Of a DNA stretch of 64,000 bases, positions 47,063 to 58,535 are shown piece after piece. Below the pieces are notes generated by a model. That model was given only the letters and a program-made list of their open reading frames with translations, ran no database searches and had not been told where the DNA came from. Origin of the DNA: a virus (taxonomy: Duplodnaviria; Heunggongvirae; Uroviricota; Caudoviricetes); the IMG/VR virus record IMGVR_UViG_2576861193_000004, positions 32,001 to 96,000 of that record. One strand, given 5' to 3'. Within the stretch, counting starts at the first letter, position 1; each line of letters opens with the position of its first letter. A program made the position numbers and the translations under genes.

Positions 47063-48625
47063 ATGAAAATGACAAGTATTCAACAACGTGCAGAGCTTCA
47101 TCGTCAAATCTGGCAAATTGCTAACGATGTCAGGGGTTCGGTCGATGGATGGGATTTTAAGCAATACGTTCTGGGCGCACTTTTCTACCGTTTTATCAGC
47201 GAAAATTTTTCCAGTTATATTGAAGCCGGTGATGACAGTATCTGTTATGCGAAACTGGATGACAGCGTAATTACTGATGACATTAAAGACGATGCCATCA
47301 AAACTAAAGGCTACTTCATCTACCCCAGTCAGCTTTTCTGCAACGTAGCTGCGAAAGCAAATACTAATGACAGACTGAATGCAGATTTAAACAGCATCTT
47401 CGTTGCTATCGAAAGTTCTGCTTACGGTTATCCTTCAGAAGCAGACATCAAAGGTTTGTTTGCTGATTTCGATACCACCAGTAACCGCCTGGGTAACACC
47501 GTTAAAGATAAAAATGCCCGCCTGGCTGCGGTTCTGAAAGGGGTTGAAGGGTTAAAACTTGGTGACTTCAACGAACATCAGATTGACCTGTTCGGTGATG
47601 CCTATGAGTTCCTGATTTCTAACTATGCGGCAAATGCCGGTAAGTCAGGCGGTGAGTTCTTTACACCGCAGCACGTCTCCAGGCTGATTGCACAACTGGC
47701 AATGCATGGCCAGACCCACGTTAACAAAATCTACGACCCGGCAGCGGGTTCCGGCTCACTGTTGTTGCAGGCGAAAAAACAGTTTGATAACCACATCATC
47801 GAAGAAGGCTTTTTCGGTCAGGAAATCAACCATACGACCTATAACCTGGCGCGTATGAACATGTTTTTGCACAATATCAACTACGACAAGTTTGATATCA
47901 AGCTGGGTAATACACTGACTGAGCCGCACTTCAGAGATGAAAAACCGTTTGACGCCATCGTATCTAACCCACCGTATTCGGTGAAATGGATTGGCAGCGA
48001 TGACCCGACGCTGATTAACGATGAGCGTTTTGCCCCGGCTGGCGTTCTGGCCCCCAAATCCAAAGCTGACTTTGCGTTTGTATTACATGCACTGAACTAT
48101 CTTTCTGCCAAAGGTCGTGCTGCGATTGTCTGCTTCCCGGGTATTTTTTACCGTGGCGGCGCGGAGCAGAAAATCCGTCAGTATCTGGTCGATAATAACT
48201 ATGTCGAAACCGTGATTTCACTGGCACCGAACCTGTTCTTTGGCACCACCATTGCAGTAAACATTCTGGTGCTGTCTAAACATAAAACGGATACCAACGT
48301 TCAGTTTATTGACGCCAGCGAACTGTTCAAAAAAGAGACTAACAACAATATCCTGACCGATGCCCATATCGAACAGATTATGCAGGTATTTGCCAGCAAG
48401 GAAGATGTTGCTCATCTGGCGAAATCTGTCACGTTTGAGACCGTTGTCGCGAATGACTATAACCTGTCGGTAAGCAGCTATGTGGAAGCGAAAGATACTC
48501 GCGAAATTATCGATATCGCTGAGTTGAATGCAGAACTGAAAACCACGGTCAGCAAAATCGACCAGTTGCGTAAAGATATTGATGCGATTGTGGCTGAAAT
48601 TGAAGGCTGCGAGGTGCAGAAATGA
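47063..48625 (+). CDS. hsdM: type I restriction-modification methyltransferase subunit
   Basis: N-terminal HsdM pattern ([10 protein letters not shown]...[17 protein letters not shown]), N6-adenine MTase motif NPPYS, 520 aa as recalled for EcoR124I HsdM. Confidence 0.9.
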
Positions 48626-49857
48626 GCGAGTTGAGTTATCTGGAAAAATTGCTGGATGGGGTTGAGGTTGAGTGGTTGCCATTGGGGAAACTAGGTGAAT
48701 TAGTTCGTGGAAATGGATTGCCTAAGTCTGATTTTACCGAATCTGGGGTTCCTGCCATACACTATGGTCAGATATATACTTTTTACGGATTATCTACTGA
48801 AACAACAAAGTCATTTGTTTCCCATGAAACGGCGAAGAAGCTTAAAAAGGTTAACTCTGGTGATGTTGTTATTACTAACACAAGCGAAAATTTTACTGAT
48901 GTTGGTAAGGCGCTTGTTTATCTAGGTAAAGAGCAAGCTGTTACTGGTGGCCATGCAACTATTTTCAAGCCAAATAGCACTATTATTGGGAAATACTTTG
49001 CCTATTTCACGCAAACGGATTCTTTTGCAAATGAGAAAAGGAAATACTCCAAGGGAACTAAAGTAATTGATGTGTCTGCATCGGATATGGCGAAAATTAT
49101 TATCCCTATCCCCTGTCCGGAAAATCCCAAAAAATCCCTTGCTATCCAGTCTGAAATCGTTCGGATTCTGGACAAATTTACTGCACTTACCGCTGAGCTT
49201 ACCGCTGAGCTTACCATGCGTAAAAAACAGTACAACTACTATCGCGACCAATTGCTGAGTTTTAAAGAAGGTGAGGTTGAGTGGAAAACTTTGGGAGAAG
49301 TGGCTCAATACTCGAAAACAAGAATTAGTTTCGAACTACTTGATGAAAGGAATTATGTTGGCGTAGATAATCTGCTGCAAAACAGAGCAGGAAAATCATT
49401 ATCTAATCATGTACCCACATCAGGTAAATTAACGGAGTTTATACCTAACGATATACTGATTGGGAATATCCGCCCATATTTGAAAAAAATTTGGCAAGCA
49501 GATTGTATCGGTGGAACAAATGGCGATGTATTGGTTATTCGTTGCATAGATAGCTCAATAAATACCAGATATCTATATCAGATTTTGGCAGATGACAAAT
49601 TCTTTGAATACAACATGCAGCATGCTAAAGGAGCAAAAATGCCGCGTGGCAGTAAAGAGGATATAATGAAATACCCAATCCCTGTACCGCCACTCACCTT
49701 GCAAGCTCGCATTGTCGAAATACTCAACAAATTCGATACCCTGACAAACTCCATCACTGAAGGTCTTCCGCGTGAAATCGAATTACGCCAGAAACAATAC
49801 GAATACTACCGTGATTTACTGTTCAGTTTCCCAAAACCTGAAACTGTCAGTAATTAA
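48622..49857 (+). CDS. hsdS: type I restriction-modification specificity subunit, type IC-like
   Basis: Two target-recognition domains separated by a central conserved region carrying the TAELTAEL repeat. C-terminal YYRDLL repeat of the conserved motif. Overlaps hsdM stop. Confidence 0.9.
49186..49209 (+). repeat. 2 x 12-bp tandem repeat CTTACCGCTGAG encoding TAEL-TAEL in HsdS
   Basis: Perfect tandem duplication inside the hsdS central conserved region. Confidence 0.9.
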
Positions 49858-49978
49858 TTGACCATTGCTACCGACCGGGCCACCTTAACACCCGGTCTGT
49901 ATATAGACTATTTTTTACGCGCCGGAAGTCACTCTTAACGCCCTTCCGGCCCTTGCCAGGCGGCACAAAGGATGCGCT

Positions 49979-52900
49979 ATGACTCATCAAACACACACCA
50001 TTGCTGAATCCAATAACTTTATCGTCCTTGATAAGTACATCAAAGCTGAGCAAACAAGCGACAGCTACCAGAGCGAATCGGACCTGGAACGTGAACTGAT
50101 TCAGGACCTGCGGAATCAGGGTTATGAATTTATTTCCGTAAAATCACAGTCGGCAATGCTGTCCAATGTTCGGGAACAGCTTCAGAGCCTCAATGGTGTG
50201 ATGTTTAATGACAGCGAGTGGCGGCGCTTCACGGAGCAGTATCTGGACAATCCCAGCGATGGTATTCTGGATAAGACCCGTAAAATCCATATCGACTATA
50301 TCTGCGACTTTATTTTTGACGACGGGCGTCTTGAGAACATCTATCTGATCGATAAAAAGAATCTCATGCGCAACAAAGTGCAGATTATCCAGCAGTTTGA
50401 ACAGGCAGGTTCTCATGCTAACCGTTATGACGTCACGATCCTGGTTAATGGCTTGCCTCTGGTGCAAATCGAACTGAAAAAGCGCGGCGTGGCGATTCGT
50501 GAGGCTTTCAACCAGATACATCGTTACAGCAAAGAGAGTTTTAACAGCGAAAATTCCCTGTTTAAGTATCTGCAACTGTTTGTCATTTCTAACGGCACCG
50601 ATACCCGTTATTTTGCCAACACCACAAAGCGCGATAAAAACAGTTTTGACTTCACCATGAACTGGGCGAAATCAGACAACACGCTGATTAAAGACCTCAA
50701 AGACTTTACCGCTACCTTTTTCCAGAAACATACCCTGCTTAATGTTCTGGTGAACTACAGCGTGTTTGACAGTAGTCAGACGCTACTGGTGATGCGACCG
50801 TACCAGATTGCAGCTACCGAACGGATCTTATGGAAAATCAACAGCTCCTATAAAGCGAAAAACTGGTCTAACCCCGAAAGCGGTGGCTTTATCTGGCACA
50901 CCACTGGTTCCGGTAAAACACTGACCAGCTTTAAAGCCGCGCGTCTGGCAACTGAACTGGACTTTATTGATAAAGTCTTCTTCGTGGTCGACAGGAAAGA
51001 CCTCGATTACCAGACCATGAAGGAATATCAGCGTTTTTCGCCAGACAGCGTCAACGGCTCGGAAAATACCGCAGGTCTTAAACGAAATCTGGATAAGGAC
51101 GATAACAAAATTATCGTCACCACTATTCAGAAACTTAATAACCTGATGAAAGCAGAAAGCGACCTGCCTGTATACAATCAGCAAGTGGTGTTTATATTTG
51201 ATGAATGCCACCGCAGCCAGTTTGGAGAAGCGCAGAAAAACCTGAAGAAGAAATTCAAACGCTATTATCAGTTTGGTTTTACCGGCACCCCTATTTTCCC
51301 GGAAAATGCCTTAGGCTCAGAAACGACCGCCAGCGTATTTGGTCGTGAATTGCATTCGTATGTAATTACCGATGCGATTCGTGACGAAAAAGTGCTCAAA
51401 TTCAAGGTGGACTACAACGATGTGCGGCCACAGTTTAAGTCTTTAGAGACAGAAACTGACGAGAAAAAACTGAGTGCGGCTGAAAATCAGCAGGCGTTTC
51501 TTCATCCCATGCGTATTCAGGAAATCACGCAATATATCCTGAACAACTTCCGCCAGAAGACTCACCGTACTTACCCCGGCTCCAAAGGTTTTAATGCCAT
51601 GCTGGCAGTAAGCAGCGTGGATGCCGCGAAAGCCTATTACGCGACGTTTAAACGGTTACAAGAGGAAGCCGCTAATAAATCTGCTACCTATAAACCACTG
51701 CGTGTTGCGACAATCTTCTCCTTTGCCGCCAATGAAGAACAAAATGCCATTGGTGAAATTTCCGATGAAACTTTTGATACCAGCGCAATGGACAGCAGTG
51801 CTAAAGAGTTTCTTGACGCTGCAATTCGTGAGTATAACAGCTATTTTAAAACTAACTTCAGCACCGACAGTAACGGTTTTCAGAACTACTATCGTGATTT
51901 AGCCCAACGGGTTAAAAATCAGGATATCGATCTGTTAATTGTCGTTGGGATGTTTTTAACCGGCTTCGACGCTCCAACATTGAACACGCTATTCGTCGAT
52001 AAAAACTTGCGTTTTCACGGCCTGATGCAGGCATTCTCCCGTACCAACCGCATTTATGACGCTACTAAAACCTTCGGTAACATCGTCACTTTTCGGGATC
52101 TGGAACGCTCAACCATTGATGCCATAACGCTGTTTGGTGATAAAAATACTAAAAATGTGGTGTTAGAAAAGAGTTATGCAGAGTATATGGAAGGCTTTAC
52201 TGATGCTGCTACAGGTGAAGCTAAACGCGGCTTTATGGCAGTAGTTTCAGAACTGGAACAACGGTTCCCTGACCCTGCCAGTATTGAAAGTGAAAAAGAG
52301 AAGAAAGACTTCGTTAAACTGTTTGGCGAATACCTGCGTGCCGAGAACATCCTGCAAAACTATGATGAATTTGCCACGCTGAAAGCCCTGCAACAAATCG
52401 ATCTTAGCGATCCTGTTGCGGTAGAAAAATTCAAAGAAGAACATTATGTGGATGATGAAAAGTTCGCTGAATTGCAAACGATTCGTCTCCCTGCTGAACG
52501 CAAGATTCAGGATTATCGTTCTGCCTATAACGATATTCGTGACTGGCAGCGCCGCGAGAAAGAAGCTGATAAAAAAGAAAAATCAACCACTGACTGGGAT
52601 GACGTGGTTTTTGAGGTCGATTTGCTGAAGTCTCAGGAAATAAACCTGGATTATATCCTTGGACTGATTTTCGAACACAACAGACAAAATAAAGGCAAGG
52701 GCGAAATGATCGAAGAGGTCAAACGCTTAATTCGTTCAAGCCTGGGGAACCGGGCGAAAGAGGGCCTGGTGGTCGATTTTATTCAGCAAACGAACCTGGA
52801 TGATTTACCAGACAAAGCCAGCATCATTGACGCGTTCTTTACCTTTGCTCAACACGAACAGCTACGTGAAGCAGAAGCGTTGATTAAAGAAGAAAATCTC

Positions 52901-53095
52901 AATGAAGAGGCGGCGAAACGCTATATTCGCACGTCTTTAAAACGCGAATACGCCACCGAAAATGGCACAGAATTAAACGAGACATTACCAAAACTTAGTC
53001 CGTTAAACCCGCAATATAAAACGAAAAAACAGACGGTTTTCCAGAAAATCGTCACGTTTATTGAAAAGTTCAAAGGAGTAGGTGGGCAGATATAG
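49979..53095 (+). CDS. hsdR: type I restriction enzyme endonuclease/translocase subunit
   Basis: 1038 aa with SF2 helicase motifs (TGSGKT, DECHRS, GFTGTP). Confidence 0.9.
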
Positions 53096-56268: not shown

Positions 56269-56516
56269 ACAACCACCTTAGTCACAACATGATCCTGAGT
56301 AACTGGATGAACTTGAGGTATCGCATCCACCGTCATCCCATCCAGAGTGACAGGACGCTCTACTGTAGTGGTGGTAATTGTCGTCGACGGAGGTGTGGTG
56401 ATGGATGAATCCGGCATCAAAAGGCTCTGACCGGCTGGTACGGTAATCGCTGCCAGAGTTGCCAAAATCACTCCGTAGGCCATTGGCTTCAGTCGATTTC
56501 GTTGAAAATTTTCCAT
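56265..56516 (-). CDS. small protein with hydrophobic segment and Thr/Pro-rich linker
   Basis: ATG 56516 with SD AAGGA at 8 nt. Translationally coupled to the 2-TM gene. Lies inside a longer alternative-frame ORF (56278-56772). Confidence 0.35.
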   Translation of the reverse strand: MENFQRNRLKPMAYGVILATLAAITVPAGQSLLMPDSSITTPPSTTITTTTVERPVTLDGMTVDAIPQVHPVTQDHVVTKVVV

Positions 56517-56914
56517 GAGAACTGTCCTTGTGTGTCCGGGTTTCACGCAACACACGAGAAGCGACGCTATTACGCACCTTCTCCATGCCTACTGTCGTGC
56601 CCAGATTAGCTATGGCGGTAGCTTGCGCATTAATGCGCTTCTCCAGTTCAAACACTCGTTCTTCCAGTTCCGTAAGGCGTGCGGAAACACGACCACTAAA
56701 CAGCTCGGTCAGCACCAGGCGAATTGAACGGGGACGTTTATTGAAAGAAGTGAAAGACGTTTGACGGGCCATGTGGATTCCATTCAGTGTCAGAAAGAGT
56801 TGCGGCTGGCCAAGCCAGCCGCCTTTTGGCGTTCCATCCTGGAACCGTACCTAACCGGTACTTCGTCATCCTGACGATTTATAAGATACCTGATTTATTA
56901 TAGTGGGTAAATAC

Positions 56915-57523
56915 TTACTTATCTTTTTGTGACAAAAACCCAATGTCATGCTTGTGAGGCATATCAGCTGCGGAATAGGCGGCGATCTTCGCCAGACGGT
57001 CACACATTTCGTTCTCGCGATGACCTGCATGGCCTTTAACCCACTTCCAGCGGACATTATGACGACTGGCGGCCGCGTCGAGACGTTTCCAGAGATCCAC
57101 GTTTTTGACTGGCTTCTTCTCAGACGTGATCCATCCGTTACGCTTCCAGCCTTTCATCCAGAGCGTCATGCCGTTTTTAAGATACTGGCTGTCGGAATGC
57201 AGGATCACGTTGCAGGGGTACTTCAGACGCTCCAGCGCAATCAGGGCGCCCATCATCTCCATCCGATTGTTGGTCGTGCTGTGAAAGCCCTCAGAAAGCT
57301 CGCGCTCTTCGCCTCGATACTGGAGAACGATGCCGTAACCGCCCGGCCCGCCCGGATTTTTGAGGCAAGAGCCATCACTGAATACTTTTACGGTTTTGAG
57401 CTGGGGATTGAACTCGACTACGGGGGTTTTGAAGTTGGTACGGGATTGCTGGTGGGTTTGGTATCTGGCTTTGGACTTCGTGCGGCAGCCAGTATGTTGC
57501 CGGGCTGGGGTCTTGGTCGTCAT
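56915..57523 (-). CDS. ribonuclease H (RNase HI family) with N-terminal basic extension
   Basis: RNase HI core motifs ([53 protein letters not shown]). ATG 57523 with SD GGAG; track start 57580 is GTG. Confidence 0.85.
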
Positions 57524-57552
57524 TTTGGCTCCAGAATCGCGCGCCGCGACGA

Positions 57553-57591
57553 TTTTTTTTTCCCTCGCGCGTGTGCGCACGCGTGCGTGTA
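57553..57591. promoter_or_regulatory. T9 homopolymer followed by a 26-bp perfectly alternating pyrimidine-purine GC-rich tract
   Basis: Read directly: TTTTTTTTT then CGCGCGTGTGCGCACGCGTGCGTGTA, containing the 12-bp palindrome CGCACGCGTGCG. Lies 20-60 bp upstream of the RNase H ATG. Confidence 0.6.
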
Positions 57592-58117
57592 AATATTAAA
57601 AATTTTTTAGAAAAGAAAAATTACTTCCCAGAACAGGTTTTAATAAAACCTGAACTGAACGAACGAAGTGAGTGAAGTTCACCTCGAACGAAGTGAGAGG
57701 TTGTCTTTTCAGGTAATACTCTCCCAGGGAGGTGAGTACAAAATTACCTCACCAACCTGGTCGTTTCATAACCTGAAAAGTTATGACCTAAGTCTACTGC
57801 CAGCTTAGGCTTGGGAAGTTATGGATGACAGCACCCCAGAACCGAGATCTTCCCACACTTTATGAAGGGGAGTACTGGATTCAACCTCTCGAAACACTCC
57901 AGACTCGACAATCATAAAGTGACCCTTCTCTCTGCCCACTTTGGTTCCCCCTTCCCCAACCCCTAAACGGTGCCGGTTCTACGCTGGTAGTGAGCTTTTT
58001 TAAACCTGACGCCAGTGACGCTATCCCCCACCCATCAGGTCGAGCTGCCAAAAGTATCCGGAAGCGGATAGATTGTATCACTGGTTAGTGGTGTTTTGAA
58101 TGGTAAGTACTTACATA

Positions 58118-58431: not shown

Positions 58432-58535
58432 GTCTGGGAGTTGTTTGGAAATCACGTCTTAAAAAGCCTGCGTCTGTATATATTAATAATTAGTACTTAG
58501 TTATTTATATATACGGAAGCAGGTTCTCAAACTAA
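58432..58535. promoter_or_regulatory. compound inverted-repeat element (copy 2), upstream of the 58118-58348 gene
   Basis: Same nested architecture and about 80 percent identity by eye to the 26808-26904 element. Confidence 0.65.

Follow-up and report, generated by a model that had tools for sequence, protein, structure and literature searches.

A homopolymeric run and an alternating GC tract lie where a structured non-coding RNA meets a variable gene slot in SSU5-like phage-plasmids

Why do a long homopolymer and a long alternating GC tract lie side by side just upstream of a phage-borne RNase H gene? We addressed this question in a 64-kb stretch of viral DNA (64,000 nucleotides, hereafter the window), which is an SSU5-like phage-plasmid: the region concerned shares 97% identity with Salmonella phage SSU5 and 80-88% with other SSU5-like phage-plasmids. 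The sequence-only reading that drew attention to the locus had placed a T9 tract at 57553-57561 and, beside it, an alternating pyrimidine-purine tract containing a palindrome, and direct reading of the letters bears out both. The T9 homopolymer lies on the plus strand (A9 in the transcript) and is adjoined by CCC at 57562-57564, and the genes in the part of the window around it are all on the minus strand. The perfectly alternating, strand-neutral tract CGCGCGTGTGCGCACGCGTGCGTGTA spans 26 nt of CG, TG and CA steps (57566-57591), with the palindrome CGCACGCGTGCG inside it at 57576-57587. The run does lie upstream of the RNase H start codon, although at a distance of 29 nt rather than the approximately 20 bp first estimated (ATG at 57523-57521, GGAG at 57532-57529). 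By itself the T9 run is unremarkable, since the 64 kb contain two such runs and 2.9 are expected from dinucleotide-preserving shuffles. The tract, by comparison, is unusual, being the sole alternating run of at least 18 nt in the 64 kb (0.22 expected, with zero shuffles reaching the observed count). Its surroundings had been described as AT-rich intergenic DNA, which holds for the adjoining 29 nt (57592-57620) but not for 57621-58065, where we find a conserved structured RNA of ordinary GC content. Taken alone, run and tract are ordinary simple sequence, and the notable result of the analysis lies outside the coordinates originally noted, in a well-supported structured RNA that heads a slot of variable cargo genes.

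The run had been predicted to vary in length, and it does. Among 67 related loci, gathered from IMG/VR by an exact 21-mer, every length from T5 to T10 occurs (T5 in 24 loci, T6 in 6, T7 in 23, T8 in 8, T9 in 5 and T10 in 1), with at least 22 independent changes over the 67 tips of a neighbour-joining tree built from the surrounding ~660 nt, and with a nearest neighbour of different run length at 24 of the 67 loci. Within the E. coli-type lineage the run takes each value from 5 to 9 between the identical flanks GCGCCGCGCCGA and CCTCGCGCGTGCGCACACGCGTGCGTGT, and among three pig-isolate plasmids that equal the window throughout the 208 aligned nt surrounding the run, one has T9 and two have T8, a difference to which homopolymer sequencing error may contribute. 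In nine pairs of loci that are identical elsewhere, however, run length is equal within each pair, indicating moderate mutability rather than extreme instability.

Such polymorphism is reminiscent of the homopolymeric contingency loci of Neisseria, Haemophilus and Campylobacter, where slipped-strand mispairing acts on a long A/T run near a gene start and its length differs between close relatives. By analogy, a run situated in the 5' leader and found as T8 or T9 in otherwise identical plasmids could switch or tune RNase H expression. Its position yields no on/off logic, however. A promoter scan and inspection of five lineages found no -35/-10 hexamers flanking the run on either strand, and no conserved reading frame crosses it, as lengths from 5 to 10 all occur with a conserved GGAG-N5-7-ATG downstream. 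The Klebsiella lineage is fixed at T5 with its gene intact, the same run precedes unrelated cargo genes in relatives, and varying it from A3 to A12 shifts the predicted RNA fold energy by at most 1.5 kcal/mol; the nine concordant pairs argue in the same direction. A regulatory switch for RNase H, lying neither in a promoter spacer nor in a conserved frame and accompanying the upstream non-coding module rather than rnhA, is therefore not what the comparisons reveal, and we consider a contingency function very unlikely.

The position of the run just upstream of rnhA has nonetheless misled automated annotation. The gene itself (minus strand, 56915-57532, including its ribosome site) encodes a 202-aa RNase HI with a PF00075 domain. 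In the SSU5 record (L001, 4010-4774) the RNase H is annotated as 254 aa and runs into the non-coding RNA, and in the three pig-isolate plasmids, RefSeq E. coli records near-identical to the window (L297, L298 and L299; two with T8, one with T9), the rnhA calls extend beyond the run and are flagged as a 'frameshifted' pseudogene. Both the flags and the 254-aa call look like artefacts of N-terminal over-extension around the homopolymer, and the conserved GGAG-N5-7-ATG start speaks for the 202-aa protein as the true RNase H product. We likewise rejected a coding role for the region, or an N-terminally extended RNase H, because run lengths break the frame, internal ORFs are disrupted and the Shine-Dalgarno sequence and ATG are conserved downstream.

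The GC tract evolves differently in its parts. In the main clade it is always alternating, over 14-29 nt, and is kept in all 51 junction variants, far better conserved than the adjoining AU-rich spacer. The palindrome is not kept across lineages: the E. coli type has TGCGCACACGCGTGCGTGT in the tract, and the Salmonella type has (TGTGCG)3TGTAT or (TGTGCG)2TGTAT in place of the palindrome. Units of 2 to 10 nt are gained or lost, as in the 10-nt deletion of plasmid pA_CitB, and the lineage differences compared are either transitions or such repeat-unit changes. Because transitions and unit slippage maintain alternation automatically, its preservation is weak evidence for selection on Z-DNA. Apart from a few degenerate variants, the sole part of the tract kept in every clade is CGCGCGAG(G); comparison of lineages places this near-constant core, which in the RNA sense reads CGCGCGAGG, at 57563-57571 on the minus strand, and it is weakened to GCGUGCGAGG in pA_CitB and L287 and to CACGAGAU in L269. 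A divergent clade, found via its neighbouring Dam gene and a 22-nt motif (L221, L222, L225, L277, L291, L252 and L257), retains only (Y)GCGCGAG(R), 8 nt, followed by an A/U-rich stretch (for example UUUCGCGCGAGAAAUUUCC, GCGUGCGCGAGGUAAAUUUU and CCCGCGCGAGGCGAAAAUAAG). It has neither the long GC tract nor the long A-run, so that neither can be essential to the RNA. Four further metagenome loci that match the 22-nt motif (L249, L270, L283 and L284) were set aside as unrelated, given that only a ~27-nt motif fits the RNA profile; in L249 the match falls within a 442-aa ORF.

To which neighbour do run and tract belong? Downstream, homology between relatives ends at the run or a few bases after it, the A9 run being the last element common to relatives whose downstream genes differ. 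BLAST matches of many plasmids begin at window position 57557, 57576 or ~57620, and direct alignment shows the sequences of pCAV1741-110 and pA_CitB to be identical to that of the window on the right, beginning with the T-run, and unrelated to it on the left. Between the A-run and a conserved 164-aa gene (56278-56772) lies a slot (56773-57552) with alternative cargos in L060, L071, L269, L280, L287, L292, L295 and L296. Its occupants among the relatives include an 822-aa TIR-domain protein, an HNH endonuclease, a GmrSD-type restriction enzyme, an LprI-like lipoprotein and several unknown proteins, and in the divergent clade the next gene encodes a 207-aa protein that is not an RNase H. No RNase H motif was found downstream in the alternative-cargo loci, and a search of genome contigs for RNase H returned chromosomal rnhA genes only. 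The cargos other than rnhA have in common ~35 nt right after the run (UCGCCCAUCGYAAUGUCUUCAAUGUGCCA). RNase H is thus one alternative cargo among others, and sequence comparison assigns run and tract to the upstream RNA module rather than specifically to an RNase H leader.

With unrelated genes alternating between conserved flanks, the slot looks, from its gene content, like an accessory or defence hotspot. It shares with the P2/P4-type hotspots of temperate phages and satellites the alternation of unrelated genes, TIR, HNH and GmrSD among them, but differs in having on its left side not a protein gene but a structured RNA that closes with a GC tract and an A-run; the defence cargos are putative. 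Elsewhere in the window, 47063-53095 (plus strand) holds type I restriction-modification genes (hsdM-like at 47063-48625, hsdR-like at 49979-53095), an accessory cargo of the phage-plasmid.

The clustering of homology breakpoints at 57557, 57576 and ~57620 also bears on a role of the tract as a DNA structure. With uninterrupted pyrimidine-purine alternation over 26 bp, mostly in CG steps, it qualifies as a candidate Z-DNA former, and it could flip to Z-DNA under negative supercoiling, or the palindrome could extrude a cruciform, serving either as a torsional sink behind a strong upstream promoter or as a recombination-favouring fragile site that sets the slot boundary. The main clade's 14-29 nt of alternation, present even where the palindrome is lost, would fit such a role. 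Yet transitions and slippage suffice to explain the alternation, the tract is down to 8 nt in the divergent clade, and any conserved module would be expected to show breakpoints at its edge, making a dedicated DNA structure a doubtful explanation in our estimation.

Upstream, the non-coding block is more conserved than its neighbouring genes. Read along the gene strand, the module consists of a promoter, a 5' hairpin of variable sequence, a core of ~445 nt and an AU-rich spacer, after which come the GC tract, with CGCGCGAGG as its last part, and the A-run. The minus-strand spacer (57592-57620) varies in sequence between lineages and measures 21-36 nt in relatives at 73-96% A+T. The core (57621-58065, minus strand) is 95-100% conserved, compared with ~80% identity in the flanking genes. 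No gene is annotated within it in the annotated records examined, and of its two internal ORFs one is broken in 17 and the other in 46 of 56 relatives. The consensus fold reaches -150 kcal/mol on the minus strand versus -114 on the plus strand.

Covariation was assessed on 56 distinct sequences and 124 of the 127 predicted pairs, three spurious long-range pairs having been removed. Across this set 99.7% of cells are paired, and 158 are compensatory, compared with 48 +/- 9.5 in shuffles, none of 500 shuffles reaching 158; sliding the partners as a control collapses pairing to 36-47%. When the divergent clade is added, 30 of 100 predicted pairs stay paired through changes on both sides, although these mostly reflect one split between two clades and correspond to fewer than 30 independent events. 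G.U cells number 765 on the minus strand and 12 when the same pairs are read on the plus strand, a count biased by derivation of the structure on the minus strand; positions that vary from Watson-Crick to G.U point to the same strand independently of that count. Compensatory pairs, strand-specific G.U pairing and the lack of a conserved ORF together identify 57621-58065, on comparative grounds, as a structured non-coding RNA.

No match at Rfam 15 gathering scores occurs in the window (4227 families without a sequence or structure match); for 57600-58100 nothing appears at E<=1 and a single chance miRNA match at E<=10, and ARAGORN finds no tRNA or tmRNA. The literature on SSU5, pHCM2, pECOH89 and phage-plasmid RNAs does not describe the region. 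The ~445-nt RNA is previously undescribed, no database or paper that could be searched covering such an RNA. It resembles ROOL and GOLLD in being several hundred nucleotides long, multi-helical, supported by covariation and carried by phage-like elements, but is so far confined to SSU5-like phage-plasmids of Enterobacteriaceae and, unlike them, is apparently co-transcribed with downstream cargo. Within that range it is widespread: the block is present in 687 PLSDB plasmids from Klebsiella, Escherichia, Enterobacter, Salmonella, Citrobacter and Cronobacter, and in 232 of 5426 complete E. coli genomes, nearly always on plasmids.

Several features of the core deserve mention in their own right. 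Two exact 13-nt direct repeats CUCACUUCGUUCG lie 25 nt apart on the minus strand (57660-57672 and 57685-57697), within 60 nt of 100% conservation across the main clade, and the divergent clade retains CUCAC-N2-3-CGUUCG twice; the repeats may serve the RNA for binding a protein or for pairing. A trans-acting antisense target was considered and rejected, there being no second copy of CUCACUUCGUUCG or CGCGCGAGG elsewhere in the window. Across 57846-57852, 57815-57822 and 57623-57630, ACUUCCCA has two potential partners, UGGGAAG upstream and a second UGGGAAGU located at the core's 3' end. The pairing with UGGGAAG is backed by compensatory changes in the divergent clade and the alternative is conserved in the main clade only; the two may represent alternative conformers. 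Lastly, a G-rich segment GGGGUUGGGGAAGGGGGAACCAAAGUGGG with at least four G-runs (57925-57960, minus strand), largely conserved in the main clade, could in principle form a G-quadruplex in the RNA.

The module is preceded by a sigma-70 promoter with an extended -10 element (58072-58100, minus strand), comprising TTCAAA at 58100-58095, a 17-nt spacer, TG at 58080-58079 and TACAAT at 58077-58072. The pattern TGnTAnnAT is kept in most lineages with varying middle positions, and in the Klebsiella lineage the TG directly adjoins the -10 hexamer. From these elements we infer a transcription start near 58065. Two further features lie on the far side of this promoter: a conserved palindrome GTAAGTACTTAC at 58104-58115, just past the stop codon of a 76-aa ORF, and a long AT-rich inverted repeat at 58458-58531, flanked by that ORF and the Dam methylase gene, with weak miRNA-like Rfam matches only.

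Between the putative start and rnhA no terminator is predicted on the gene strand, which suggests that RNA and cargo are co-transcribed; the next predicted site is a terminator-like hairpin downstream of rnhA (56822-56802), identified by a terminator scan and likely to mark the end of the transcription unit. At the junction itself the gene strand holds no intrinsic terminator, the A-run lying inside the hairpin and the tail AUUCUGG offering three U only. A plus-strand terminator composed of TCGCGCGCCGCGA and the T9 run was also rejected: it amounts to a 5-bp hairpin in the window that does not form in the E. coli or Klebsiella lineages, and no plus-strand gene ends at TCGCGCGCCGCGA and T9.

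A promoter about half a kilobase upstream, a folded RNA, an A-run at its end and a connection to RNase H together call to mind the ColE1 origin, whose RNA II is ~555 nt long and whose primer ends in an A-run. By this analogy the ~510-nt transcript would persist as a hybrid, and RNase H would cut it at the polypurine run GAGGGAAAAAAAAA to yield a primer; the ~512 nt of largely structured RNA from promoter to A-run, and a purine tract with an RNase HI gene immediately downstream, agree with it. In relatives, however, the module does without RNase H, many of them keeping the RNA with no rnhA in the slot. The divergent clade has no purine run, there is no GC-skew change at the locus, and neither an antisense regulator nor an RNA I-like unit was found. 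Inspection by eye revealed no iteron array beyond the two 13-nt repeats in the RNA and no DnaA boxes. An RNA-primed origin of this kind is, in our view, extremely improbable.

What, then, might the run and tract do at the end of the module? RNA folding predicts a junction stem-loop on the minus strand (57538-57581, -20.7 kcal/mol) in which GGG and A9 form the loop. The 3' arm would come from UCGUCGCGGCGCGCG, a GC box shortly before the ribosome site of rnhA (57538-57552, minus strand), within which GCGGCGC is conserved in the rnhA-linked lineages; the outer stem would join 57581-57575 with 57544-57538 and the inner stem 57571-57565 with 57552-57545. When folded, each of the 44 distinct junction variants is predicted to present the A-run in the apical loop of a GC stem, built from the tract's 3' half and the nucleotides that come directly after the run. 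Complementary arms occur with three different downstream flanks. In L071, which has a different downstream flank, both arms are changed yet complementary (ACAAG-C-GAGG...CCUC-CC-CUUGU), and in L024 and L050 a U.G pair has become U-A opposite the same U. Pairing comes easily to CG-rich flanks, however: against dinucleotide shuffles the native fold does not stand out (z = +0.32), and 14-35% of trials with shuffled flanks enclose the run with as many pairs. We therefore treat the junction stem-loop as plausible rather than demonstrated.

A third SSU5-like lineage (L226-L233) provides an analogy by position. It carries an unrelated structured non-coding region of ~430 nt at the equivalent place (5040-5500 in L226, 5060-5500 in L230), with compensatory changes between L226 and L230 and no Rfam match. 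A -10 element of its own and a 5' hairpin open this region, and a canonical terminator, UUCGGCC...GGCCGAA followed by U7-8, closes it ~25 nt short of the next gene. The window's GC stem occupies the position of that terminator, which favours a role at the junction.

The same observations allow a rival account, in which run and tract have no dedicated function and are slippage-born simple sequence tolerated at the boundary between RNA module and cargo, with only the short CGCGCGAG constrained. It would readily accommodate the 22 or more changes in run length among the 67 loci, the gain and loss of units ((TGTGCG)2 versus (TGTGCG)3, and the deletion in pA_CitB), substitutions in the form of transitions with their automatic alternation, the divergent clade's getting by with 8 nt, and a hairpin no better than shuffles. 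It is harder to reconcile with a 14-29-nt tract, the sole one of its kind in the 64 kb, persisting in all 51 main-clade junction variants at a level far above the spacer, and with complementary arms recurring next to three different flanks. We regard this by-product account as less probable than a junction role, yet as a serious contender for all but the CGCGCGAG core.

We tentatively favour, at a little short of even confidence, the reading in which run and tract are the 3' junction of a module composed of a promoter and a long structured RNA, placed before the variable slot of SSU5-family phage-plasmids, with the stem-loop as the junction element. The arrangement of the locus, its conservation, its polymorphism and the module boundary are shown directly, while the hairpin is predicted and its role proposed. 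Transcription would start near 58065 from the extended -10 promoter, and the transcript would cross the ~445-nt RNA, the AU-rich spacer, the GC tract and the A-run before continuing into rnhA. The 3' half of the GC tract would then pair with the GC box that precedes the ribosome site of rnhA, and the A-run would form the loop of the resulting hairpin of about -21 kcal/mol. Such a stem-loop between the non-coding RNA and the cargo mRNA could serve as a processing or stability hairpin or as a leaky attenuator. Run length would be nearly neutral, given an effect of at most 1.5 kcal/mol, and we propose that it drifts for this reason. Like known intercistronic stem-loops (REP-type stabilisers, the RNase III sites of phage T7 and leaky attenuators), the predicted element places a GC-rich stem between transcript segments, near the next ribosome site and with no strong U-tract; unlike them, it has an A-rich loop of 12-15 nt and a fold not better than shuffles.

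The junction reading can be taken further, to a more speculative and distinctly unlikely proposal in which the ~445-nt RNA is a new class of cis-acting regulated leader for whatever cargo the slot holds, with CGCGCGAGG, the GC stem and the A-loop as its output element. If true, the tract would be the expression platform of an RNA sensor in a family of phage-plasmids that ~4% of complete E. coli genomes carry, and the amount of transcription or translation reaching the cargo would be set by the output element. Among clinical Klebsiella, E. coli, Enterobacter and Salmonella, SSU5-like phage-plasmids are common, and a conserved RNA at the edge of their slot for RNase H and defence-type genes could reveal how accessory cargo is expressed or regulated.
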